51,509 nt of DNA, from the IMG/VR virus record IMGVR_UViG_3300014025_000004. One strand, written 5' to 3'. Each line of letters opens with the position of its first letter. Positions within the stretch are counted from its first letter, which is position 1. Shown in pieces: positions 1,948-51,509 of this stretch. The position numbers and the translations under genes are program-made. The notes beneath the pieces were generated by a model. That model worked only from the letters and a program-made list of their open reading frames with translations. It made no database searches and was not told the origin of the DNA. The DNA is from a virus.

Positions 1948-3033
1948 ATGGAAATAGAAGCAGAACTCAAAGGCAAATTAGAGCAGCTTTATAACCGTGT
2001 GGAAAGTCTCAAGGACCAGATTAACACGGAGGAAGCAACTAAAAACGCCTTCATCATGCCTTTCTTGCAGATACTCGGCTACGATGTATTTAACCCTACG
2101 GAGGTTATTCCTGAGTACGTGGCCGATATAGGCACCAAGAAAGGCGAAAAGGTAGATTATGTAATCAAGAAAGACGATCAGGTCGTGATTATCATTGAGT
2201 GCAAGCATTGGAAAGAGAATATCAATGCTCATAACTCCCAATTGCACCGATACTATCACGTTACCGATGCACGCTTTGGCATTATCACCAATGGGATTGT
2301 GTATGACTTTTTCACAGACCTTGAAAAGCCCAATATCATGGACAACAACCCTTTCCTTACCGTGAATTTGGCTAACCTCAAAGACAGCACCATTAAGGAA
2401 CTGGTGAAGTTCACCAAGGCAACCTTTAGCATTGACAACATATTAGAGAGCGCCGAAGCCCTCAAGTATGTACGTGCTTTTAAGAATGAGTTTGAAAAGG
2501 AAATACAGGAGCCGTCCGATGACTTTATCAAGCTGTTAGCACGTCGTTTCTTTGATAAGCAAATCACCGCTGGCCGATTGGAGATATTCCGTGGATACCT
2601 CAAGCGTGCCATGACTTCCTATTTCAACGATTCAATTAATACCCGCCTGAAAACTGCCCTTGACATTAACGAGGGCAAGGCACCACAACCCAAGGAAGAG
2701 CCAGTGGCGCCTGAACCTATAATAGACGAGGAAGACGAAAGCAGGATTGTTACCACCGAGGAAGAGTTGGAAGGATTTCAGATAGTCAAAGCGATTGTCC
2801 GAGAGAAAGTACCCGCTTCACGAATTGCTTACCGAGATACCATTTCGTACTTTGGTATATTGTTGGACGATAACAACCGCAAGCCTATTTGTAGGTTACA
2901 CTTCAACGGCGTGAAGAAATATATCGAGTTCTTTGACAAAGGCAAAGACAGCTCCGAAAAGGTACTCCTTGACAGCTTGGACGATATTTACACCCATAAG
3001 GAACGCTTATTACATACAGTTGAAATTTACTAA
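1948..3033 (+). CDS. PD-(D/E)xK nuclease-like protein of the HsdR_N type (type I restriction enzyme R N-terminal-like domain), with an uncharacterised C-terminal domain
   Basis: 361 aa. EKVDYVIKKDDQVVIIIECKHW...QLHRYY...FGIITNG gives the D..E-x-K..Q..Y..TNG motif order. Confidence 0.65.
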   Translation: MEIEAELKGKLEQLYNRVESLKDQINTEEATKNAFIMPFLQILGYDVFNPTEVIPEYVADIGTKKGEKVDYVIKKDDQVVIIIECKHWKENINAHNSQLHRYYHVTDARFGIITNGIVYDFFTDLEKPNIMDNNPFLTVNLANLKDSTIKELVKFTKATFSIDNILESAEALKYVRAFKNEFEKEIQEPSDDFIKLLARRFFDKQITAGRLEIFRGYLKRAMTSYFNDSINTRLKTALDINEGKAPQPKEEPVAPEPIIDEEDESRIVTTEEELEGFQIVKAIVREKVPASRIAYRDTISYFGILLDDNNRKPICRLHFNGVKKYIEFFDKGKDSSEKVLLDSLDDIYTHKERLLHTVEIY

Positions 3034-3451: not shown

Positions 3452-4168
3452 TTATACAATTATAGAGTGTATAAACGCCCTGCCTTTTTCAGTCCAAACC
3501 GTTGATGAGTTTGTGCAGGTCTCACCTTTGCTATCTGTATAAGTATAGGTGACAGTCTTTGTGTAACCCTTATTTTGATGAGGGTGATATAGTAACCATT
3601 GCCCGCCTTGCTTATATTGTACTTTCAGCTCGTGTAACTTCTTATTGAGCGTTACAGCACTCATACCGAGTTCTTTTGCGATTTGGTTGGCGTTGTAGGT
3701 GCTTTGCGAAGTCAGCACTTCATCGTAATAGGCTACTTTCGGGGCTTGTTTCTCAAGTTCTTTAGCTTGTAGCTCATTTTGCGCTTGTAACCTCTCTTTT
3801 GCTTCAACCTCAATCAGTAATGATTGTAACGCCTCTTTGTAAGTGGTAGGTAGTGCAAATTTGCCACTTCTTAGCTGTTTTTCACACTCTATGAAATACT
3901 CACGTGCTTCTTTACCCTTTTTAGACCGCTGTATCATTGATATTTCTTTCGCACAATCAAGGGTGAGGGCGTAGTCAGTAAGTGTTTGATTTGCAAGGGC
4001 GTTAAAAAATTCACACCCTTGATAATCAATATTTTCAACAAATCCATATTGTAACATTCTTTCAAACCAACTACTAAACCTCTCTGTTATTTCTAAGAAC
4101 TTATGTAAGTCTCTTGCCGATACGGCTTGATTGCCGTTATACTCTGTGATTTTTATCAACTCGTTCAT
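3452..4168 (-). CDS. Phage antirepressor (AntA-like N-terminus plus KilAC-like C-terminus)
   Basis: 238 aa. N-terminus: NGNQAVSARDLHKFLEITERFSSWFERMLQYGF. C-terminus: YNANQIAKELGMSAVTLNKKLHELKV. Confidence 0.75.
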   Translation of the reverse strand: MNELIKITEYNGNQAVSARDLHKFLEITERFSSWFERMLQYGFVENIDYQGCEFFNALANQTLTDYALTLDCAKEISMIQRSKKGKEAREYFIECEKQLRSGKFALPTTYKEALQSLLIEVEAKERLQAQNELQAKELEKQAPKVAYYDEVLTSQSTYNANQIAKELGMSAVTLNKKLHELKVQYKQGGQWLLYHPHQNKGYTKTVTYTYTDSKGETCTNSSTVWTEKGRAFIHSIIV

Positions 4169-31073: not shown

Positions 31074-31973
31074 ATGAACAAAAGTCAAATTTCACATGAA
31101 GGAGTTCTAAATTTAGGAGGTATATCTATACCTTGCTATGTGCTTGAAGATGGGACAAGGGTTCTATCAGGAAGAGGTATGCAAGAGGCATTAAAAATGG
31201 TTGATGATGTAGAGGAAGGCAAACAAACAGCAGGTACACGATTGACTCGATATTTGAATCAAAAAAGCCTTAAACCCTTTATTTATAAGGATAAGGAACA
31301 GGACCACTTTAAACCTATCATCTGTTATAAGGGCACGATGAAGATTAATGGTTATGAAGCAACTATCTTGGCGGATATTTGTGAAGCTTTTCTTGAAGCT
31401 CGTAACATTATAGAACTTTCTACTCGTCAAAAGATTATAGCTGATCAATGCGAAATTCTTATCAGAGGATTCGCAAGAGTAGGAATCACTGCTCTTGTTG
31501 ATGAAGCTACAGGGTATCAATATGAAAGGGAAAGAGATGCTTTACAAGTTATTCTAAAAGCTTATATAAACGAGGAACTTTTAAAGTGGCAAAAGACGTT
31601 TCCTGATATGTTTTATTACGAGATATTTAGGTTGAACAAGTGGGATTATACAGTAAAAGGCATTCAGAAGAGACCAGGTGTTATTGGGAAGTGGACAAAT
31701 CAATTAATATACAAACAATTACCTAAAGGAGTACTTGAAGAATTAAAAAATAAAACACCTAAAAGCATAGAGGGAAATTATACAGCTCGTTTCTTTCAAA
31801 GTTTAACTCCCGATATAGGGCACCCTGCATTAACAGCTCAGATATATAAAATAATTGCCCTTATGAATATTTCTAATAACTGGAAAGAGTTTAGAAGTAA
31901 TTTTATTAGAATGGTTAATAGGGAAAATGGTCAATTAGAATTTGATTTTGATAATGAAGACGATGATTTGTAA
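31074..31973 (+). CDS. P63C-domain protein
   Basis: 299 aa. RGMQEALKM...LTRYLNQKSLKPFI...KWQKTFPDMFYYEIFRLNKW. Confidence 0.55.
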   Translation: MNKSQISHEGVLNLGGISIPCYVLEDGTRVLSGRGMQEALKMVDDVEEGKQTAGTRLTRYLNQKSLKPFIYKDKEQDHFKPIICYKGTMKINGYEATILADICEAFLEARNIIELSTRQKIIADQCEILIRGFARVGITALVDEATGYQYERERDALQVILKAYINEELLKWQKTFPDMFYYEIFRLNKWDYTVKGIQKRPGVIGKWTNQLIYKQLPKGVLEELKNKTPKSIEGNYTARFFQSLTPDIGHPALTAQIYKIIALMNISNNWKEFRSNFIRMVNRENGQLEFDFDNEDDDL

Positions 31974-33335: not shown

Positions 33336-34094
33336 TTAATTTATTAAGGCTTTAGGGGTGTATTTTCTTCCGTATAGCTTACGGAGGTAAGTTATCAATT
33401 CGTCAAAGGACTTTATAAACTCGTCTCCTATAAGGTCTGCTACTTTCTGTTGTAGTTGAAAAAGCTCCAATTGTTTTGTTTCTTCTCCTACCTCATTACG
33501 CATAGCGTGCTTATGGTCTCCAAAAACAATAAAATTCAATCCTTGCGCTATCTTTTTCATTGCCATAGGCATAAGCTGCTTAGGAACGATTGTTGCCACA
33601 TGTGAAGCTAATGTTTTGTAGCTATCTCCTGCAAGGTTTCGGTACTTAATCATTTCGTCAGATACAAATCGCAGTACATCATATTTGAAATAAGGATTAA
33701 GCCACATAGCAAAGTCTATGAACAACATAGGGTGCATCCAAGTGCCAGCATTTACCCCTCTTGAAGCTCGTGATTTTAAATATACAGATGTTTCGGAAGT
33801 TAGATTTTCTTTTTGTATGATTACACAAATATATTCCTGAGTTGATTTGTTTAGAAAGAAATCGTCAATATCTTTCTTTTTTACATAGGGGGAATTCTGG
33901 GTATGTAAAATAACTTGTTGATTTTCAGAGCTATTTTTTACATACCCAGAATTCTGGGTATGTAAAACTTTCTGATTTTCAACAGCATTATTCCATTGTT
34001 TCAATAATGCAGTAGCATTAAAAAATCCGTCTTTGGTACGTTGGATAACCTCAAAGTCTCCCATTTTACGAACCATATTTTGATTGGTTTTCAT
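33336..34094 (-). CDS. KilA-N domain protein
   Basis: 252 aa. GDFEVIQRTKDGFFNATALLKQWN. Contains the in-frame repeat LHTQNS(G/P)YVK. Confidence 0.65.
   Translation of the reverse strand: MKTNQNMVRKMGDFEVIQRTKDGFFNATALLKQWNNAVENQKVLHTQNSGYVKNSSENQQVILHTQNSPYVKKKDIDDFFLNKSTQEYICVIIQKENLTSETSVYLKSRASRGVNAGTWMHPMLFIDFAMWLNPYFKYDVLRFVSDEMIKYRNLAGDSYKTLASHVATIVPKQLMPMAMKKIAQGLNFIVFGDHKHAMRNEVGEETKQLELFQLQQKVADLIGDEFIKSFDELITYLRKLYGRKYTPKALIN
33936..33967. repeat. 32-bp perfect palindrome centred on GAATTC inside the KilA-N gene
   Basis: ttttacatacccagaattctgggtatgtaaaa. An imperfect copy lies at 33877-33910. Confidence 0.85.
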
Positions 34095-35751: not shown

Positions 35752-36038
35752 TTGTCAATATTTTTAGTGTTAATAATTTCTCCTAAACTAAGTACAAAGT
35801 ATCTTTTGCCTTCTTCTGCACCCCATTCGCTCTTTCCTATGCCTTGGGTGATACTTTTTAGTTTTATTGTAAATTGTGGGGCGTTGGTAGCATACCCGTT
35901 ACGAAAGATGACCTTATCGTATGTCTTTCCCATAAGCCGCTTTTCCCAGTAAAGTTTGATTTCTCGGTATTCTTCCTTCTTCTCTCCTGTGAGAATAAGG
36001 TCAAACCAGTTTTTCTTGAGTGTAAGGTGTAAATTCAT
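35748..36038 (-). CDS. ASCH domain protein (second copy)
   Basis: 96 aa. LTLKKNWFDLILTGEKKEEYREIK...VIFRNGY. Confidence 0.55.
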   Translation of the reverse strand: MNLHLTLKKNWFDLILTGEKKEEYREIKLYWEKRLMGKTYDKVIFRNGYATNAPQFTIKLKSITQGIGKSEWGAEEGKRYFVLSLGEIINTKNIDK

Positions 36039-37068
36039 CTACTATAAATTTTAATCGTTTTGCTATTAATTCTACTATATCCACGGTTACAGCGTTACCT
36101 ATGAGCTTATAGCGTTGTGTCTTAGCAATAGGTTTTATTGTGCCATTATAATCACCATATTGTGTCCAATTGTCAGGAAAACCTTGTAGTCGTTCGCATT
36201 CTATTTCCGTGAGACGACGCATTCTACTAATGGCATAATTACTATTATGTCTTGTTAGAGCAGGACTTATTCCCCTTTCATCAAACACTCTATTTTGTTG
36301 ATAGGGTTGCCTGCCATTGGATTCCTTAGACGGATTTAGCTGTATCACAGTCATATCTGAATGCAACCCTCCTGAGTGTCCGCCGCCTGTGAGCGTAGCT
36401 GCAACCTTGGGGATTATATAGGTATCATTGCTCCCCATTTTGTGATAGCGTGATGTTATTGTTCGTGCAAGTGAAGTTTTGATACTTGTACGTTTCCTAT
36501 TTTCTTTCCTTGTCTTTCCCTCAAGTAATTTATCATCTTTTCCGATAGGAAATACTCCTGGGACACTTCGTCCTGCAAGATGTCCGATAAGGTATATCCG
36601 CTCTCTATTTTGGGGTAAAAGCCAGCTTGTATTAAGCAATTGCCATTCGATTGTATAATCCCCAAGGTTGGCAAACGCTTGGATAATCGCCCAAAAGTCT
36701 GCGCGAGCATTTGAGGAGAATGCTCCCTTAACATTTTCCCAGATAAAAATACCTGGTCGGATGTGAGCAATGAGGGCAATTGCGTACTCGATAAGGCTAC
36801 TTTTGGCTCCTTTAAGCCCCGCTCTTTTTCCAGCAAGTGAGAAATCGACGCAAGGCGAACCGAAAGTGATAATGTCAATGTCTGTAAAGTCTCCTCCGTC
36901 AAGAGTGGTAATGTCTCCGATGTATTTGGCATGGGGAAAATTGTATTTATAGTTTGCGATTGCGTGTTTGTCTATCTCACTAAAATAGTGTTCTGTAAAT
37001 TGGTAGCCTGCTCTTTGAAATCCAAGCGAAAAACCACCAATCCCGCTGAATAGGTCAATGATTTTCAT
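36001..37068 (-). CDS. dcm: DNA (cytosine-5)-methyltransferase
   Basis: 355 aa. DLFSGIGGFSLGF (motif I), GSPCVDFSLAG (IV), ENVKG (VI), QNRERIYLIG (VIII), GNAVTV (X). Confidence 0.9.
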   Translation of the reverse strand: MKIIDLFSGIGGFSLGFQRAGYQFTEHYFSEIDKHAIANYKYNFPHAKYIGDITTLDGGDFTDIDIITFGSPCVDFSLAGKRAGLKGAKSSLIEYAIALIAHIRPGIFIWENVKGAFSSNARADFWAIIQAFANLGDYTIEWQLLNTSWLLPQNRERIYLIGHLAGRSVPGVFPIGKDDKLLEGKTRKENRKRTSIKTSLARTITSRYHKMGSNDTYIIPKVAATLTGGGHSGGLHSDMTVIQLNPSKESNGRQPYQQNRVFDERGISPALTRHNSNYAISRMRRLTEIECERLQGFPDNWTQYGDYNGTIKPIAKTQRYKLIGNAVTVDIVELIAKRLKFIVDEFTPYTQEKLV

Positions 37069-38745: not shown

Positions 38746-39621
38746 TTAAAATAATTTAGGTTGCATTTTATCAGCAATCATACGCTTGAGATTGCGCTGC
38801 ATTTGATTGTAATAGGACTCCTTAAGCTCTATTCCTATATAGTTACGATTAAGCCTTAGACTTTCATACCCTTCACTTCCTATTCCTCCAAAAGGACTTA
38901 GTACTGTCTCACCCTCGTTGCTCCACAAATGCAAGCAACGCCTGATCGTTTCTAGCTGTAAGGGACAAATATGCTTCTCGTCTTTCTCCTCACGAGCAGA
39001 GGTATATTGCAAGGTATCGGAGTAGTTGATGTCATACCACACTGGCTCGGCATACTTTTGCCACAAATTCACGGGGAGGTAATTTTCTTTTTTCTCATCA
39101 GTGGCTTGGTGGGTGATTGGTACTAAGTTATCACCCGCATTGCGAAAGACTAAGATGTAATCAGGGATCCCAGTGCGAGACATACTGCTGTCTTTTAAGA
39201 TTGTTTTATGAAGCAACCCTATTGATTTGGTTCTTGTTACTTCTACTACAGGGCTTTTCCATATTGTGATCCTATCGTGGTAAATAAACCCTTCCTTCTC
39301 AAAAGCCTGAATGAGCATACCTGAAAAGTATTTGAGTCCTATATATCCGTCTTTCACTTTCATTGCTGGCAAGTCCATACAATGCACTGCTACCAATCGT
39401 CCGCTTTTAATTACCCTTGCTAATTCTTTTACAAGGAATTGAAAATGTACAAAGAACTCCTCATAATCTTTGCAGTTACCCATGTCTCGTATATCGTCTG
39501 AATAAACATACAATTCAGCAAAAGGAGGGCTAAATATTGAAAAGTCAATGCTGTTATCAGGGAGTTTAGCTACCTCCTCTACGCAATCGCCGTGTATAGC
39601 TGTGAATTTTGGTTGTTCCAT
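38746..39621 (-). CDS. DNA methyltransferase, beta-class N6-adenine or N4-cytosine
   Basis: 291 aa. FSIFSPPFAELY (motif IV, SPPF) precedes LSPFGGIGSEGYES (motif I). Confidence 0.8.
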   Translation of the reverse strand: MEQPKFTAIHGDCVEEVAKLPDNSIDFSIFSPPFAELYVYSDDIRDMGNCKDYEEFFVHFQFLVKELARVIKSGRLVAVHCMDLPAMKVKDGYIGLKYFSGMLIQAFEKEGFIYHDRITIWKSPVVEVTRTKSIGLLHKTILKDSSMSRTGIPDYILVFRNAGDNLVPITHQATDEKKENYLPVNLWQKYAEPVWYDINYSDTLQYTSAREEKDEKHICPLQLETIRRCLHLWSNEGETVLSPFGGIGSEGYESLRLNRNYIGIELKESYYNQMQRNLKRMIADKMQPKLF

Positions 39622-40877
39622 AGTGTCTGGTTATTAATCATTAATTGTTGCATTTGTTTGAATTGTTTCTCTTTCTCTTTGATGATACTAATGACATTCT
39701 GCATAGTATCAGTGGTTACAATATTAACCATTACATCTCCTTTCTTTCCGAAGCGGTGGGATCGTCTCACAGCTTGGTAAAACCCCTCAAAAGAAAAGTC
39801 AGGGCTCATGAAAGTTTGATTAAGGCAGTGCTGAAAGTTCAATCCGTATTGGGCTATCTTAGGTTTAGTAACTAATACTCTGAACTTCCCATCTACAAAG
39901 TCTAACAACTTTTGTGCTTTCTCTTCAGGCTTATCACTTCCTGAGACTTCCACCGCTCCACGAATACCCGCAGTAACTTCTTTCCCCTCGTCATTATGTT
40001 TCACCCATACAATGTGTGGTTCCTCATTCGCATTAGCTATCTCTATTGCCTTTGCTATTCGTTGCTCTTTGGTTCGTCTTAACTCCTTGTTGAAGTCAGT
40101 AGCTGATACAGCCAAATTAGGAAATAACATACCATTGCTAAAGTCATTTTCAGTGATGATTTGGTGTTCCTTGTAAATTACATCGGATAAGTCATACCCT
40201 TGCATTGGGTAACCTATATCCGCGGGATTGGTAAGCATTATCGCCCATTCTGATACGAACTGATAGAACTTCTCAATTGCATGCCCTTTCAATCTCCATT
40301 TACTCGTGTGGTCTTGGTCATTGATGAAGTAGGTAGCAAGCATTCCTAACCTACTTTGATAACCTAAAAACTCTGAATGGTTAGCAAGCTCCATAGGATC
40401 ATTAGGAGAGGGAGTAGCTGTAAAAGCAAACTTGTAAGGGGTATTATGGAAATACTCAAAGAGTTGCTGCTTTATTTTGCCTTCAAAGTTCTTCATTATT
40501 GAACTTTCATCTACTATCAGCCCCGCATACTCCAGGTGATTGATTTTGTGCAAATTCTCAAAGTTGGTGATCGTTACCTTATCAAGGTCAAACCCAAACT
40601 TTTCCGCTTCTCTTTGGGTCTGTGCTACCACTACCAAGGGAGCAAGGATTAACACAGGTTTGTTGGTGTGTCGTACGATTTGGGTAGCTGTCTCAAGCTC
40701 CATCACAGTCTTTCCTAATCCACAATCAGCAAATACAGCGTGCTTGCCCTTGCTTAGGTTATGTTCTACAATAAACTGCTGAAAAGGAAACAGCTTGTCA
40801 TTCATTGGCAAAGCGGTAAAGCCTTTATGCTCCTTTGCTTTCTGCTTTGATTTTAAAAACTCTTGATACTCGTTCAT
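39579..40877 (-). CDS. SNF2/DEAD-like superfamily 2 helicase
   Basis: 432 aa. FADCGLGKTVMELE (Walker A), LIVDESS (motif II), and a C-terminal helicase region ..RRSHRFGKKG. Confidence 0.8.
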   Translation of the reverse strand: MNEYQEFLKSKQKAKEHKGFTALPMNDKLFPFQQFIVEHNLSKGKHAVFADCGLGKTVMELETATQIVRHTNKPVLILAPLVVVAQTQREAEKFGFDLDKVTITNFENLHKINHLEYAGLIVDESSIMKNFEGKIKQQLFEYFHNTPYKFAFTATPSPNDPMELANHSEFLGYQSRLGMLATYFINDQDHTSKWRLKGHAIEKFYQFVSEWAIMLTNPADIGYPMQGYDLSDVIYKEHQIITENDFSNGMLFPNLAVSATDFNKELRRTKEQRIAKAIEIANANEEPHIVWVKHNDEGKEVTAGIRGAVEVSGSDKPEEKAQKLLDFVDGKFRVLVTKPKIAQYGLNFQHCLNQTFMSPDFSFEGFYQAVRRSHRFGKKGDVMVNIVTTDTMQNVISIIKEKEKQFKQMQQLMINNQTLWNNQNSQLYTAIA

Positions 40878-47707: not shown

Positions 47708-47948
47708 ATAAATCGCTGTTTTGTCTTGCTCTTTCAAGTTCAGCGTAAAACTTACCCGTGTAATCTGAAATATCAACGGTTTCTTTTAGTTTTAGTGAAG
47801 ACTTGCCCCCTTCCACAAGGGCAAGTTCTTCGTTAAGGCTAATAATCTCGCTTGCCAATATTCTAACAGTACCCTCTAAGAATAACTTTAGGTCGGTTAC
47901 ACGCTCTAATTTTCTTTTTAGATGTCCTTTCAGCTCGGTATTATTCAT
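47706..47948 (-). CDS. Hypothetical coiled-coil protein (80 aa)
   Basis: ORF in an operon context. Confidence 0.45.
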   Translation of the reverse strand: MNNTELKGHLKRKLERVTDLKLFLEGTVRILASEIISLNEELALVEGGKSSLKLKETVDISDYTGKFYAELERARQNSDL

Positions 47949-47954
47949 GATTAA

Positions 47955-48185
47955 TTATTCTACTTTTACATCTTCTGTTGAATATCCATAACTCTCATAC
48001 AAAGGCATTAGTCTTACATTGAGTAATGTATCACTTCTACGCCTTGCAGAATTTTGTACAGCTATCTGTGTCTTATCCATTTCAAGGGCTATTTGAAGGC
48101 TTAACTTATTATTAGATAGTATCTCTTCTGCGATAGCCTCAGAGAGCTTGCCCGTAACTTTGTGCCTTTTTTTTACTTTATTCAT
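47955..48185 (-). CDS. First early gene, small HTH-like protein (Cro-position)
   Basis: 76 aa. LSLQIALEMDKTQIAVQNSARRRS. It is the first gene downstream of the leftward immunity-region promoter. Confidence 0.4.
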   Translation of the reverse strand: MNKVKKRHKVTGKLSEAIAEEILSNNKLSLQIALEMDKTQIAVQNSARRRSDTLLNVRLMPLYESYGYSTEDVKVE

Positions 48186-48214
48186 TGTTGTTTACATTTT
48201 TATTATTATCTTTG
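48185..48214 (+). promoter_or_regulatory. Rightward (lysogenic) promoter TTG-N19-TATCTTTG
   Basis: TTG at 48185-48187 and TATCTTTG at 48207-48214. Confidence 0.5.
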
Positions 48215-48257
48215 TATCGTAAAAATGTAGAACATTTGTTGTTACATTTCGACAGTG

Positions 48258-48288
48258 CAAAATTAGAACATTTCTCTGTAAAAACAAA
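48258..48288 (-). promoter_or_regulatory. Leftward (early lytic) promoter TTTG-N19-TAATTTTG
   Basis: The minus strand reads TTTGtttttacagagaaatgttcTAATTTTGCACTGTC. It lies to the right of the rightward promoter, so the two face each other. Confidence 0.55.
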
Positions 48289-48359
48289 ATGTTTTACAGA
48301 AAATTTCTCTGTGATTAGTGTTAAAGTTTATAAGTGATTGATTTTTAAATAATTGTAAA

Positions 48360-49841
48360 ATGGTGTTGTCTAAATACATTTGGGATTTATACAAGGAAAG
48401 TAAGCAAGGGAAAGAAACTATTGATTTTTTTGAATATCATAGTGTTTTCTGGAATGATGTAAAGGTTATCAATAAGTACAATCCTATCTATGGAAAATGG
48501 ATAGAAAAAAGGGATTATGAAAGCATAATGCAACAAATAGGCGACAGCTCTCTTGATAGAAATCCTTGTTTTGATTTTAAAGACTTTTCGGAAGTAAGAA
48601 AGGAGTTTGAAACTTGCTTAGATGAGGGAATTTATTTCATATTTGATAATGATGAAAAACGCTATGTTATAGACCCCAAAGACTATGCAATTTTTCTAAA
48701 TCTGCACATAGTAATGTCTTTCTATTTTTATGCAATAGCTTATGAATATACATTCCCGTACCTATTTACATACCGATTTTTTGACTTAAACAAAATTGCA
48801 GATACCTTTAACATAGAGCTTCCAAAGCTACCTAAGAAAAGTGACTATCGCTCCCGTTGTATGTATTACATTGAGCTTTGTGAGGTGTTTTACAAGTTTA
48901 GAATAGAAAACAATCTTACCCCTAATGAATTATGTGCTTTCTTGTACGATTTTGCCCCTAACTATGTAAATAACGAAAAAACGGAAATATCTAAACCAAC
49001 TCAAGCGTGGTTCATAGGAGGGTTAATCTCAGAGGAAGAACGATTGGAAGAAGTAAAATTTTGGCAAGCAAATCCTGAAACTAAAAAAGGAGATATTTTA
49101 GTACATTATGAAACTTCTCCTATTAGTGCAATTACTCATATATGGATAGCGCAAACAGACGGAGTTGTTGATCCTTTTTTCTATTATTATGCCAATTCTT
49201 ATATAGGTGATGGAATTGAGATACCATACATAACACTAAAAGAATTAGAATCTGATGAATATTTTTCAAAACACCCTCTAATACGTAAAAAATTTCAAGG
49301 AGTAAATGGTTGGGCTATATCTAATGACGATTATTCACATTTATTGCAGTTGATAAGAAGTAAAGGGTTTGATACATCTGTGTTACCAACATTACAGGCT
49401 CCTGAACCACCTCAGGGAATTGAATTGCATAATGAAAGAGATGTGGAAGTGAAATTATTAGAATATTATCTGAACCAGATAGGATATTCTGAAAACAAAG
49501 ATTTCATAAGACAATTACCAATAAAGGCAGGTAGAGGTAACAGAATATATCCTGATTATGCCTTACATTACGACAATAAAAGAGGATACGAGAAAGCAAA
49601 GATACTTATTGAGGCTAAATATCATCTGAAAAATAATAAGGAAATAGAAGATGCATTTAAACAAGCTCGTTCCTATGCTAACTTATTAGAAAGTGAAAAG
49701 ATTATCCTTTGTGATAAGTTTGGTCTAATTATTTATCTAAAGAAAGGTTCTTTTGATAGATATAATTATGAAAAAGTATATTGGAATGATTTGCAAAATC
49801 CTGATGTCTATAACAAGTTTGTTAATATATTAAAGAAGTGA
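48360..49841 (+). CDS. Large protein with a C-terminal PD-(D/E)xK HsdR_N-type nuclease-like domain and an unknown 360-aa N-terminal region
   Basis: 493 aa. RIYPDYALHYDNKRGYEKAKILIEAKYHLKNNKEIEDAFKQARSYA gives D..E-A-K..Q..Y. Confidence 0.6.
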   Translation: MVLSKYIWDLYKESKQGKETIDFFEYHSVFWNDVKVINKYNPIYGKWIEKRDYESIMQQIGDSSLDRNPCFDFKDFSEVRKEFETCLDEGIYFIFDNDEKRYVIDPKDYAIFLNLHIVMSFYFYAIAYEYTFPYLFTYRFFDLNKIADTFNIELPKLPKKSDYRSRCMYYIELCEVFYKFRIENNLTPNELCAFLYDFAPNYVNNEKTEISKPTQAWFIGGLISEEERLEEVKFWQANPETKKGDILVHYETSPISAITHIWIAQTDGVVDPFFYYYANSYIGDGIEIPYITLKELESDEYFSKHPLIRKKFQGVNGWAISNDDYSHLLQLIRSKGFDTSVLPTLQAPEPPQGIELHNERDVEVKLLEYYLNQIGYSENKDFIRQLPIKAGRGNRIYPDYALHYDNKRGYEKAKILIEAKYHLKNNKEIEDAFKQARSYANLLESEKIILCDKFGLIIYLKKGSFDRYNYEKVYWNDLQNPDVYNKFVNILKK

Positions 49842-49982
49842 TTTTAGTGGTAAAGGTGTATAACAGATCATAGAATATTTCCTAAAAAAGAATTTCAGTT
49901 ACAATCGAAATACGAATTCCAAAACGTCTTTGTTTTGATGATTTCAAGATAACAAACAAATTTTTAATTAAAACACAAAAGT

Positions 49983-50867
49983 ATGAAAGATAATTCGGAT
50001 ACAGAACAAAATTCTGTAAAAAATAGATTGCTTGATTTCTTAAAATATAAAGGAATAAGTCAAAGTAAATTTGAGCAACAATGTGGAATATCAAATGGCT
50101 ATGTAAATAATATTCGTAAGGGAATAAAAAGCGAAATGTTTGACAAAAAAATAGCTCCTATTTTCCCAGAACTTAGCAAAACTTGGCTGTTACTTGGAGA
50201 AGGCTCCATGCTTGTCCCACAGATAGAAGAGGTTGTACCAGAGGAGGAAGAGGAAGATGATTTAGTATTATTCCTAAGAGACGAGCGCAAAGGGTATGAT
50301 ATTACCCTGACTGATATTTATGAGAAAACACGTATACCTGTAAAAACGCTTAAAGAGGTACAACAAGGTGTAACAGAACTATCCACAAAGCAAAAGAATG
50401 TTTTATCTAAGTACATAGAGGAAGCAAGGGAATACTTTCAAGAAGAGGCAATAGGAAATCCTATTGGGAAGCCTACTGGTTACTACTACCCTGAAGTATA
50501 TGCAAAAGCTGGGTTTGACATTGCTAATTTTAACCATGAAATGCAGCGTATCCCTGTATATATACCTAATTTTGGAGACGATGTTACCTTTATAAATGTG
50601 TATGGGGATAGTATGTATCCAAAATACAAAGCAGGGGATGTTATAGGAATTAAGCCTGTTGATTTCGTATATTTAGTATTCGGACATCCTTACGTGGTAG
50701 TGTTTGATAATGGAGATGTTAATATAAAGTATGTTCGCAAAGGTTCAGATGACCTTCATGTGAGTTTAGAAAGTGAGAATCCAAAATACGACCCTCGTGA
50801 ATACCCACTTAGAATTATTCGTGCTTTTTATGCTGTAAAAGGAAGTGTAAAAAAAGAGCGAATGTAA
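49983..50867 (+). CDS. CI/LexA-type repressor (N-terminal XRE HTH plus C-terminal S24 peptidase)
   Basis: 294 aa. ISQSKFEQQCGISNGYVNNIRKG is an HTH. VYGDSMYPKYKAGDVIGIKPV..IKYVRKG fits a Ser/Lys dyad region. Confidence 0.85.
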   Translation: MKDNSDTEQNSVKNRLLDFLKYKGISQSKFEQQCGISNGYVNNIRKGIKSEMFDKKIAPIFPELSKTWLLLGEGSMLVPQIEEVVPEEEEEDDLVLFLRDERKGYDITLTDIYEKTRIPVKTLKEVQQGVTELSTKQKNVLSKYIEEAREYFQEEAIGNPIGKPTGYYYPEVYAKAGFDIANFNHEMQRIPVYIPNFGDDVTFINVYGDSMYPKYKAGDVIGIKPVDFVYLVFGHPYVVVFDNGDVNIKYVRKGSDDLHVSLESENPKYDPREYPLRIIRAFYAVKGSVKKERM

Positions 50868-50939
50868 TATAACAATTCGTAGCGACTGCAATCGTGGAGC
50901 GGATAGCGTATTAAAAAACTTAAGACAATAGAAAGGATG

Positions 50940-51164
50940 TTATGATTTCTCCTTGAGTTCATCAAGGATTTTCTTTATTTCCTCTCTAAGAGCCCAACAC
51001 CAACCTTCAGGAATATCGCCTTCAATAAAAGGATCTTTCCATTCTCTGTTTTTGAGTTGAATGGTAGCATGTGCCACAAATCGGTATATTTTTATACTTT
51101 CATCTCTGCAATCTATTAGCTCTTTGATTAAGTCATACACGCCTTTTTCATTATTACTTGCCAT
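50940..51164 (-). CDS. Hypothetical small protein (74 aa from the internal Met MASNNEKG)
   Basis: The promoter at 51189-51218 overlaps the longer ORF-track start, which favours the ATG at 51164. Confidence 0.45.
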   Translation of the reverse strand: MASNNEKGVYDLIKELIDCRDESIKIYRFVAHATIQLKNREWKDPFIEGDIPEGWCWALREEIKKILDELKEKS

Positions 51165-51188
51165 AGTAGTATGTATTAGTATTAGGCA

Positions 51189-51218
51189 CAAAGTTACAAA
51201 AAATAACCGAGCAAACAA
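51189..51218 (-). promoter_or_regulatory. Promoter TTG-N19-TAACTTTG
   Basis: The minus strand reads TTGtttgctcggttattttttgTAACTTTG. Confidence 0.45.
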
Positions 51219-51262
51219 GCTCGGATAAAACCATATGATTAAATTCTGAAATACGGAAAAAA

Positions 51263-51353
51263 GGCAAGGTAAGCCTATTTCAAAAATCCTTGTAAATCAC
51301 TATAAACCAACTACCTACATCGTTTATTGCCGTCAAGGTAAAAAGCAAGGAAG
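51263..51353 (+). promoter_or_regulatory. CAAGGTAA-type repeats, putative integrase arm-type sites on the attR-proximal arm
   Basis: ggcaaggtaa at 51263-51272, gtcaaggtaaaa at 51332-51343 and agcaaggaag at 51344-51353. Same orientation as the copies at 116-139. Confidence 0.35.
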
Positions 51354-51436
51354 ACCACTATTTCCCTATAGTTGTTCATTTAAAAGTATCTGATTTTAAA
51401 GAAGTTACAAAACGAAAAATTTTATCCTTTAGGATT

Positions 51437-51509
51437 TCGGCTCTGAGGGTTAGGGGTTCGAAGCCTCTCGCGGTCACTAAGTGTAACACTCTTCCACTCA
51501 ATGTGTTAC
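51437..51509 (+). repeat. attR copy of the 73-bp direct repeat (carries only the partial tRNA 3' end)
   Basis: Identical to 1-73. The sequence upstream of it contains no matching 5' acceptor strand (GACCGCG). Confidence 0.9.

Follow-up and report, generated by a model that had tools for sequence, protein, structure and literature searches.

A predicted modification-dependent nuclease encoded beside the cI repressor gene of a temperate phage

The virus record IMGVR_UViG_3300014025_000004, a stretch of 51,509 nucleotides to which we refer as the window, carries beside its cI-like repressor gene a gene for a protein of 493 amino acids (aa), here called T (positions 48360-49841, + strand). With a probability of about 0.6, T is a Type IV-like restriction nuclease, modification-dependent and contained in a single polypeptide, and is made in the lysogen, probably on the cI transcript. 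The protein consists of an N-terminal helical domain, a middle domain of EVE type, and a C-terminal PD-(D/E)xK nuclease domain with conserved catalytic residues, and its gene is linked to cI across many phages and has the structure of a cassette. A first-pass annotation of the window, made from the letters alone, had proposed T as a lysogen-expressed defense or exclusion effector, and a lysogen-expressed sensor-nuclease in one polypeptide still appears to us to be the best reading of the gene.

Domains of the 493-aa protein

The gene call holds: The ATG-to-stop open reading frame (ORF) has exactly the boundaries 48360 and 49841 in the ORF list, the protein matches phrog_37753 ("function unknown") from end to end, and a homology search returned 939 relatives at E<=1e-3. 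The best 120 of these 939 are nearly all full length, with 480-498 aa and 52%-99% identity to T, and the sources of homologs include Capnocytophaga, Riemerella, Ornithobacterium, Bacteroides, Parabacteroides, and their relatives. An exhaustive profile search gave 695 family clusters when grouped at 50% identity; 259 have E<=1e-30, and a layout of ~480-530 aa is common to most. The family is almost restricted to Bacteroidota, where the prophages that carry it are found in Bacteroides, Phocaeicola, and Parabacteroides of the gut and in oral Capnocytophaga. In the assembly collection, 455 indexed blocks contain a single Bacteroides variant, and a relative is encoded on 211 IMG/VR contigs; neither megablast with the DNA nor tblastn with the protein found the gene in any INPHARED phage record.

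An AlphaFold2 model of the protein, built on 42 homologs, reached a predicted local distance difference test score (pLDDT) of 86.3 and a predicted template modeling score (pTM) of 0.68. It falls into three parts: aa 1-~205 are helical, with a single hairpin; aa ~215-335 are rich in beta strands; and the C-terminal aa ~359-493 have the secondary structure alpha-beta-beta-beta-alpha-beta.

The C-terminal part (aa ~355-493; 49422-49841, + strand) is a PD-(D/E)xK nuclease domain of HsdR_N type, bearing E359/E363, D399, E418-x-K420, and Q435xxxY439, the last of which we take to be the QxxxY motif known from the EcoR124I HsdR nuclease. Every element of the signature from which the first-pass annotation had named the domain (PDY..ILIEAK..Q..SYA) is present, with PDY at 398-400, ILIEAK at 415-420, Q435, and SYA at 438-440. 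That annotation had also let its proposal depend on the conservation of the catalytic residues in homologs, and they are conserved: D399, E418, K420, Q435, S438, and Y439 are invariant in the 42 close homologs, and across 98 representatives at ~30% identity D399 remains invariant and the other five are at least 90% conserved. T itself matches Pfam HSDR_N below threshold (E 0.001, aa 382-441). When each of 98 diverse family members, 27%-45% identical to T, was scanned singly against Pfam, 54 matched HSDR_N and 28 matched HSDR_N_2, and five gave weak RmuC-like matches. Foldseek, which had been suggested as a check, was run on the model and placed the C-terminus with the nuclease domains of the HsdR fragment 3h1t, of DrdV (7lvv), and of BpuSI (3s1s), and with Cas4. 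The relatives' Pfam matches, the structural matches, and the conserved catalytic residues together bear out the HsdR_N-type PD-(D/E)xK assignment.

For the middle domain (aa ~210-340; 48987-49379, + strand), the same search against the Protein Data Bank (PDB) ranked four EVE structures at the top (2ar1, 2gbs, 1zce, and 2hd9; E 7e-4 to 2e-3, probability 1.0, target template modeling [TM] score 0.56-0.63), followed by YTH (4u8t, YTHDF2) and ASCH (5y6c, 5guq) domains, the whole set spanning E 7e-4 to 2e-2 at probability 1.0 and target TM 0.5-0.63. EVE, YTH, and ASCH are PUA-like readers of modified bases, and we regard the domain as a putative reader of this kind. Sequence signals point the same way: Pfam EVE is matched by 11 of the 98 family members (best E 1.2e-4), and hhalign aligned the family profile with a fragment of the EVE protein 2gbs over T residues 241-328 (82% probability, E 1e-5). 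The PDB sequence search with two family profiles returned noise plus a weak match to this same protein, for the family profile at the right position. The residues W235, G244, D245, Y250, P254, P272, G317, and Y325 of this domain either do not vary among the 98 representatives or are conserved in at least 90% of them.

The N-terminal domain (aa 1-208; 48360-48983, + strand) would be a new or unmatched fold, judging from the model. Modeled alone it reached pLDDT 91 and pTM 0.88, and a fold search of the PDB with it gave no credible match (best E = 3, probability <= 0.13). In the homolog alignments, aa ~105-208 form the best-conserved stretch of the whole protein, and the first ~105 aa are variable or replaced in many relatives; many family representatives align only from profile position ~104-110 onward. 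The annotation had described the N-terminal 360 aa as free of recognizable motifs and as a possible sensor. This stands for aa 1-208, which match no solved fold, but not for aa ~210-340, which are EVE/PUA-like by Foldseek, by the Pfam matches of relatives, and by hhalign.

Linkage to cI and transcription

T lies next to the cI-like gene and in the same orientation, 141 bp upstream of it. The 294-aa product of that gene (49983-50867, + strand) is a repressor of the helix-turn-helix (HTH) and Peptidase_S24 type, as judged by Pfam (Peptidase_S24 at E 1.2e-12, weak HTH matches) and by phrog_4 ("transcriptional repressor"). On the other side, across a gap of 174 bp, a 76-aa gene (47955-48185, - strand) opens the long leftward early operon, divergent from T.

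Genomic context was drawn from three independent samples, which gave the same picture: selected homologs, one genome per species (searched with a profile from the close-homolog alignment), and IMG/VR contigs, for which counts refer to the best 80 of the 211. The one-genome-per-species sample yielded 30 Bacteroidota loci with a relative of T; ~17 distinct loci among them have a co-oriented cI-like gene as the immediate upstream neighbor, at gaps of -19 to +53 bp. In IMG/VR, cI is directly upstream in 63 of the 80 contigs (gaps 1-53 bp), and the order of the window, with cI downstream, occurs in ~11, all close Capnocytophaga relatives. One common Bacteroides prophage has, in this order, leftward early genes, cI, the 492-aa T homolog, a small opposite-strand ORF, integrase, and the host maf gene; the Capnocytophaga cynodegmi locus reads cI, a gene for 124 aa, the T homolog of 491 aa, a gene for a 352-aa HSDR_N protein, and a gene for 155 aa. 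T as the "first gene of the cI operon" is thus correct in gene order for the window and its Capnocytophaga lineage, but not for most relatives, in which cI comes first. Judging by these gene orders, T ahead of cI is a lineage-specific variant, and the general rule appears to be a place inside the repressor transcription unit, usually the one that rexAB occupies in lambda. The comparison with rexAB made in the first-pass annotation survives in this amended form: T would sit in the repressor unit, but the truly rexAB-like place is downstream from cI.

A copy of T that is 97% identical, in another Capnocytophaga element (L007), sits downstream from a different cI, and DNA homology between the window and this element is confined to 48347-49854, which extends the ORF by just 13 bp at either end. 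Because homology ends so close to the ORF on both sides, gene T is a promoterless cassette that has been placed on either side of cI. We found no regular partner: The genes downstream from T relatives differ from locus to locus and are often host genes. A conserved downstream partner was accordingly rejected, the downstream genes being a heterogeneous set of small ORFs or host genes. Not all copies are in prophages: In Chryseobacterium and in a Bacteroidetes metagenome-assembled genome, the neighbor is GroEL or Obg. In Hallella and Prevotella (L022, L024, L026, L033), the protein has 634-639 aa, with an extra N-terminal domain of ~150 aa that has no Pfam match, and the gene stands outside a prophage immunity region, with a WYL-domain regulator, a 900-aa protein, and an AddA-like UvrD-PD-(D/E)XK helicase-nuclease as neighbors. 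The WYL regulator and AddAB-like genes in Prevotella/Hallella are at most suggestive of a defense-island context for non-prophage copies; other flanks are housekeeping genes. In three further loci (L044, L049, L053), the gap between T and cI is 340-365 bp and holds a small opposite-strand ORF with an apparently hydrophobic C-terminus; the same small element is also found upstream of cI in L007 (631-836).

In the window, the spacer between T and cI (49842-49982), which ends in the conserved cI leader of ~34 bp, has on the + strand no sigma-70-like site and no terminator-like hairpin. The sigma-70 consensus scan found such sites overall no commoner than chance, and Bacteroidota use a different consensus: The Bacteroidota promoter has a -7 box, TAnnTTTG, with TTTG near -33, as in Bacteroides and Flavobacterium. 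The + strand of the spacer has no TAnnTTTG box either, even with a relaxed pattern, in agreement with the first-pass annotation, which had seen no promoter there. Upstream of T, the motif scan gave a candidate -7 box for a rightward (maintenance) promoter that would serve T and cI (TATCTTTG, 48207-48214, + strand) and another for a leftward (lytic) promoter (TAATTTTG, 48258-48265, - strand), with TTTG 19 nt upstream. In 10 of 10 diverged relatives with T ahead of cI, both boxes are kept amid variable flanks, the rightward one as TAnnTTTG and the leftward one as GTGCAAAnnTA on the + strand; in the whole window the TAnnTTTG motif occurs 86 times, against 63 +/- 7 expected. A repeat search found operator-like repeats at 48265-48312 (AGAAnATTTCTCTGT twice, with inverted half-sites ACAGA/TCTGT), which overlap the upstream part of the candidate leftward promoter, and relatives have ACAGA-N-TCTGT palindromes in the corresponding position. 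Given the cassette structure, the conserved upstream box, and a spacer with neither promoter nor terminator, the simplest reading is that T and cI would be co-transcribed from the rightward promoter.

The two candidate promoters (48207-48265) face each other, so their transcripts would overlap by ~30 nt. Convergent switches are typical of P2/186-type phages, and the promoters of lambda stand back-to-back; by analogy, the arrangement in the window would resemble the P2/186-type switch more than that of lambda. Immediately 5' of the T start, a block at 48318-48355 (GTTAAAGTTTATAAnnnnTTGnTTTTTAAATAA) is conserved in all relatives with T ahead of cI but lies outside the cassette that L007 shares; a leader or regulatory function is possible. 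A scan of 47800-51509 against Rfam returned nothing meaningful.

Proposed function and its alternatives

An EVE-type reader and a PD-(D/E)xK nuclease in one chain assign T to the EVE-PD(D/E)XK Type IV-like class: EVE-PD(D/E)XK and EVE-HNH cores have been predicted to be Type IV enzymes (Bell et al. 2020, PMC7641849). On every feature that can be tested by sequence and model T appears to fit this class, and like its members it joins reader and nuclease in a single chain and has no methyltransferase gene linked to it. It differs in the conserved ~200-aa N-terminal helical domain without fold match, in an EVE domain so diverged that T itself falls below the Pfam EVE threshold, and in being nearly confined, as a family, to Bacteroidota, where temperate phages carry it in what appears to be their cI operon. 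We consider the family, which may itself be among the members of the Bell et al. census, an uncharacterized, common variant of the predicted class. The suggestion that T could be an undescribed system is therefore right in that the family is uncharacterized and lies outside PADLOC, but the EVE-PD(D/E)XK class had already been predicted (PMC7641849).

Other reader-nuclease fusions offer partial parallels. VcaM4I and TspA15I, both EVE-HNH enzymes, have been found by experiment to prefer or cut DNA with 5-hydroxymethylcytosine or 5-methylcytosine (PMC6765204; PMC12707154), and YenY4I has the architecture EVE-DUF3427-PD-(D/E)XK (Lutz et al. 2019, PMC6765204). T shares with them the fusion of an EVE-type domain to a nuclease, but the nuclease of VcaM4I and TspA15I is HNH, and the reader of YenY4I is N-terminal with DUF3427 between the two, whereas T has the order helical domain, EVE, HsdR_N-type nuclease and no sequence similarity to any of the three (no PDB sequence match). 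Prophage-borne Type IV restriction is represented by McrA on the e14 prophage of Escherichia coli (PMC12707154). Like McrA, T would be a modification-dependent nuclease on a prophage-like element and would act against modified DNA that enters the cell; unlike T, McrA uses a different reader and an HNH nuclease. McrA is not known to sit in a repressor operon.

In lambda, RexAB, co-transcribed with cI, brings about abortive infection by means of two proteins, a sensor and a membrane channel. Like rexA-rexB, T appears to be an accessory gene in the repressor unit, in most relatives just downstream from cI, and by the logic of rexAB an accessory gene in that unit would be made only in lysogens. 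There is no homology, since T gave no match of RexA or RexB kind in Pfam, PHROG, or PADLOC, and in place of two proteins T is a single soluble reader-nuclease that lacks a consistent partner.

On the proposed mechanism, the lysogen would make T together with cI, and the EVE/PUA-like domain would recognize a modified base in incoming DNA, probably by base flipping, upon which the HsdR_N-type PD-(D/E)xK domain (D399, E418, K420, QxxxY) would cleave that DNA. The helical domain would probably serve in assembly, DNA binding, or control. DNA of the host and of the resident prophage would be spared, being without the modification. We infer expression of T in lysogens, a DNA target, dependence on modification, and protection against phages.

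Several observations weigh against this. The EVE call draws on a predicted structure and weak sequence signals, with Foldseek E ~1e-3, and, EVE, YTH, and ASCH domains being able to bind RNA too, the target of T could be RNA. A PADLOC check proposed in the first-pass annotation found no family in PADLOC-DB v2 at E<=1, so T lies outside the PADLOC models, and its Pfam matches, to HSDR_N and RmuC, are all sub-threshold. The TAnnTTTG motif, being short and common, is weak promoter evidence alone, and the opposite-strand ORF between T and cI in some relatives means that co-transcription is not universal. Finally, the phage encodes methyltransferases of its own in the leftward lytic operon, one for C5-cytosine (36001-37068, - strand; Pfam E 1.5e-63) and one of N6/N4 type (38746-39621, - strand; Pfam E 7.5e-22), which would clash with T if it reads those marks. 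These enzymes may therefore limit the modification that T can target: Presumably it is blind to the phage's own C5 and N6/N4 marks. Alternatively, it would target similarly methylated sibling phages, with a self-restriction problem at induction. In favor of a Type IV enzyme, no methyltransferase stands beside T relatives in the Pfam-annotated loci, and a search limited to the window's two methyltransferase types found no homolog adjoining the gene and one distant C5-methyltransferase homolog in 116 loci. In the window, the methyltransferase genes adjoin an SNF2-like helicase gene (39579-40877).

Two relatives bear on the choice between a defensive and another role. In P0220 (L037) and P0249, the helical and EVE parts are retained, the nuclease is missing, and a TIR domain of defense type has been gained at the N-terminus (Pfam TIR_2 at 2e-13; PADLOC pAgo-TIR and ThsB models); a C-terminal segment of ~85 aa with no assigned fold stands in place of the nuclease. 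P0249 (L038, 1118-2944) is flanked by two further TIR-domain genes. Effector swapping is typical of defense systems, and this swap lends independent support to a defensive role of the family. It also raises an alternative that we think rather unlikely, namely, that T is an abortive-infection effector, in which the helical and EVE parts sense modified phage DNA or RNA and free the nuclease to degrade DNA, including that of the host, killing the lysogen. The swap is to a typical abortive-infection effector in relatives that retain the sensor part, the position of the gene resembles that of lambda rexAB, an abortive system, and regulatory locking could be the role of the additional conserved N-terminal domain. 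The reader-nuclease fusions studied so far, however, are direct restriction enzymes, nothing in the sequence of T indicates an autoinhibited state, and TIR variants are just two of the 150 clusters listed. TIR-swapped variants fit defense better, too, than an even less probable role of the nuclease in the phage's own life cycle (policing lysogeny, acting in induction or recombination, or on host DNA), with a tie to cI that is regulatory rather than defensive. Such a role would account for the very tight linkage to cI, in either order, across many phages; it would be in keeping with the weak RmuC-like matches, and the phage's methyltransferases could make a substrate for T during the lytic cycle. 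It accords poorly with copies outside prophages, next to GroEL or Obg or with WYL and AddAB-like neighbors, and with the transfer of the ORF, as a cassette complete in itself, from one immunity region to another.

Several homologs are named as the R subunit of a Type I restriction enzyme (HsdR) by NCBI and UniRef, and T does share with the HsdR nuclease domain (EcoR124I; the 3h1t fragment) the PD-(D/E)xK subtype with its D, ExK, and QxxxY. The NCBI name "type I restriction endonuclease subunit R" is nevertheless wrong: Unlike HsdR, T has no SF2 motor, since neither it nor the 98 relatives match ResIII, DEAD, or Helicase_C and the model contains no RecA-like fold; no inspected locus contains hsdM or hsdS; and the nuclease is C-terminal, not N-terminal. 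The missing motor domain and missing hsdM/hsdS refute an HsdR identity, to which we attach almost no probability.

If T is the modification-dependent restriction nuclease proposed here, a function would be assigned to a family now listed as "unknown" in PHROG or misnamed "Type I R subunit," and temperate Bacteroidota phages would routinely arm their lysogens with such a nuclease from the repressor operon. This would be relevant to phage-phage competition in the human microbiome and to the choice or engineering of therapeutic phages with modified DNA, and T might serve as a new enzyme for mapping DNA modifications. The TIR-swapped relatives would provide a test case for a modified-base reader driving an abortive-infection effector. 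They also invite a broader and distinctly tentative proposal, that modified phage nucleic acid is sensed by a portable unit of the helical and EVE parts, with an unseen fold as its basis and wired to a nuclease or to a TIR NADase; this would define a new and very common defense family of temperate Bacteroidota phages, hard-wired into the repressor operon, in which a modified base triggers restriction or abortive infection. A search of the literature found no paper describing the family, NCBIfam gave no match to T, and the viral structures of BFVD gave weak EVE/ASCH-like and HsdR_N-like matches to the model, with no named system among them.

The 361-aa nuclease gene and other phage features

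The phage carries a further gene of related type near its other end, for a 361-aa protein (1948-3033, + strand) with an N-terminal HSDR_N domain (Pfam E 5.6e-14) and a C-terminal half without assignment. This protein had been described as paralogous in type to T, and both do belong to the HSDR_N superfamily, but no pairwise similarity is detectable between them (BLASTP E 5.9). Against PADLOC it gave weak Cas4-like matches only. An ortholog, 69% identical, lies directly downstream from the 491-aa T homolog in C. cynodegmi (L006, 9490-10548), and the two genes co-occur in the window and in C. cynodegmi only (36 loci, L001-L036, counted apart from the 80 IMG/VR loci). A two-gene system with the 361-aa protein as an obligate partner of T was rejected, C. 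cynodegmi being alone among these loci in having both. The protein could be a second nuclease of the lysogeny module.

The first 73 bases of the window are identical to the last (1-73 and 51437-51509), so the window represents one phage genome of 51,436 bp, bounded by terminal repeats of attachment-site (att) type or of assembly origin. The repeat contains the sequence GGTTCGAAGCC, which resembles the 3' end of a tRNA; ARAGORN found no tRNA in it. Read as a circle, the genome runs T, cI, a 92-aa gene on the opposite strand, att, integrase, a 100-aa gene, the 361-aa HSDR_N gene, and a 122-aa gene. An AntA/KilAC antirepressor gene lies near the integrase end (3452-4168, - strand), and genes with P63C and KilA-N domains are found in midgenome (31074-31973, + strand, and 33336-34094, - strand, respectively).

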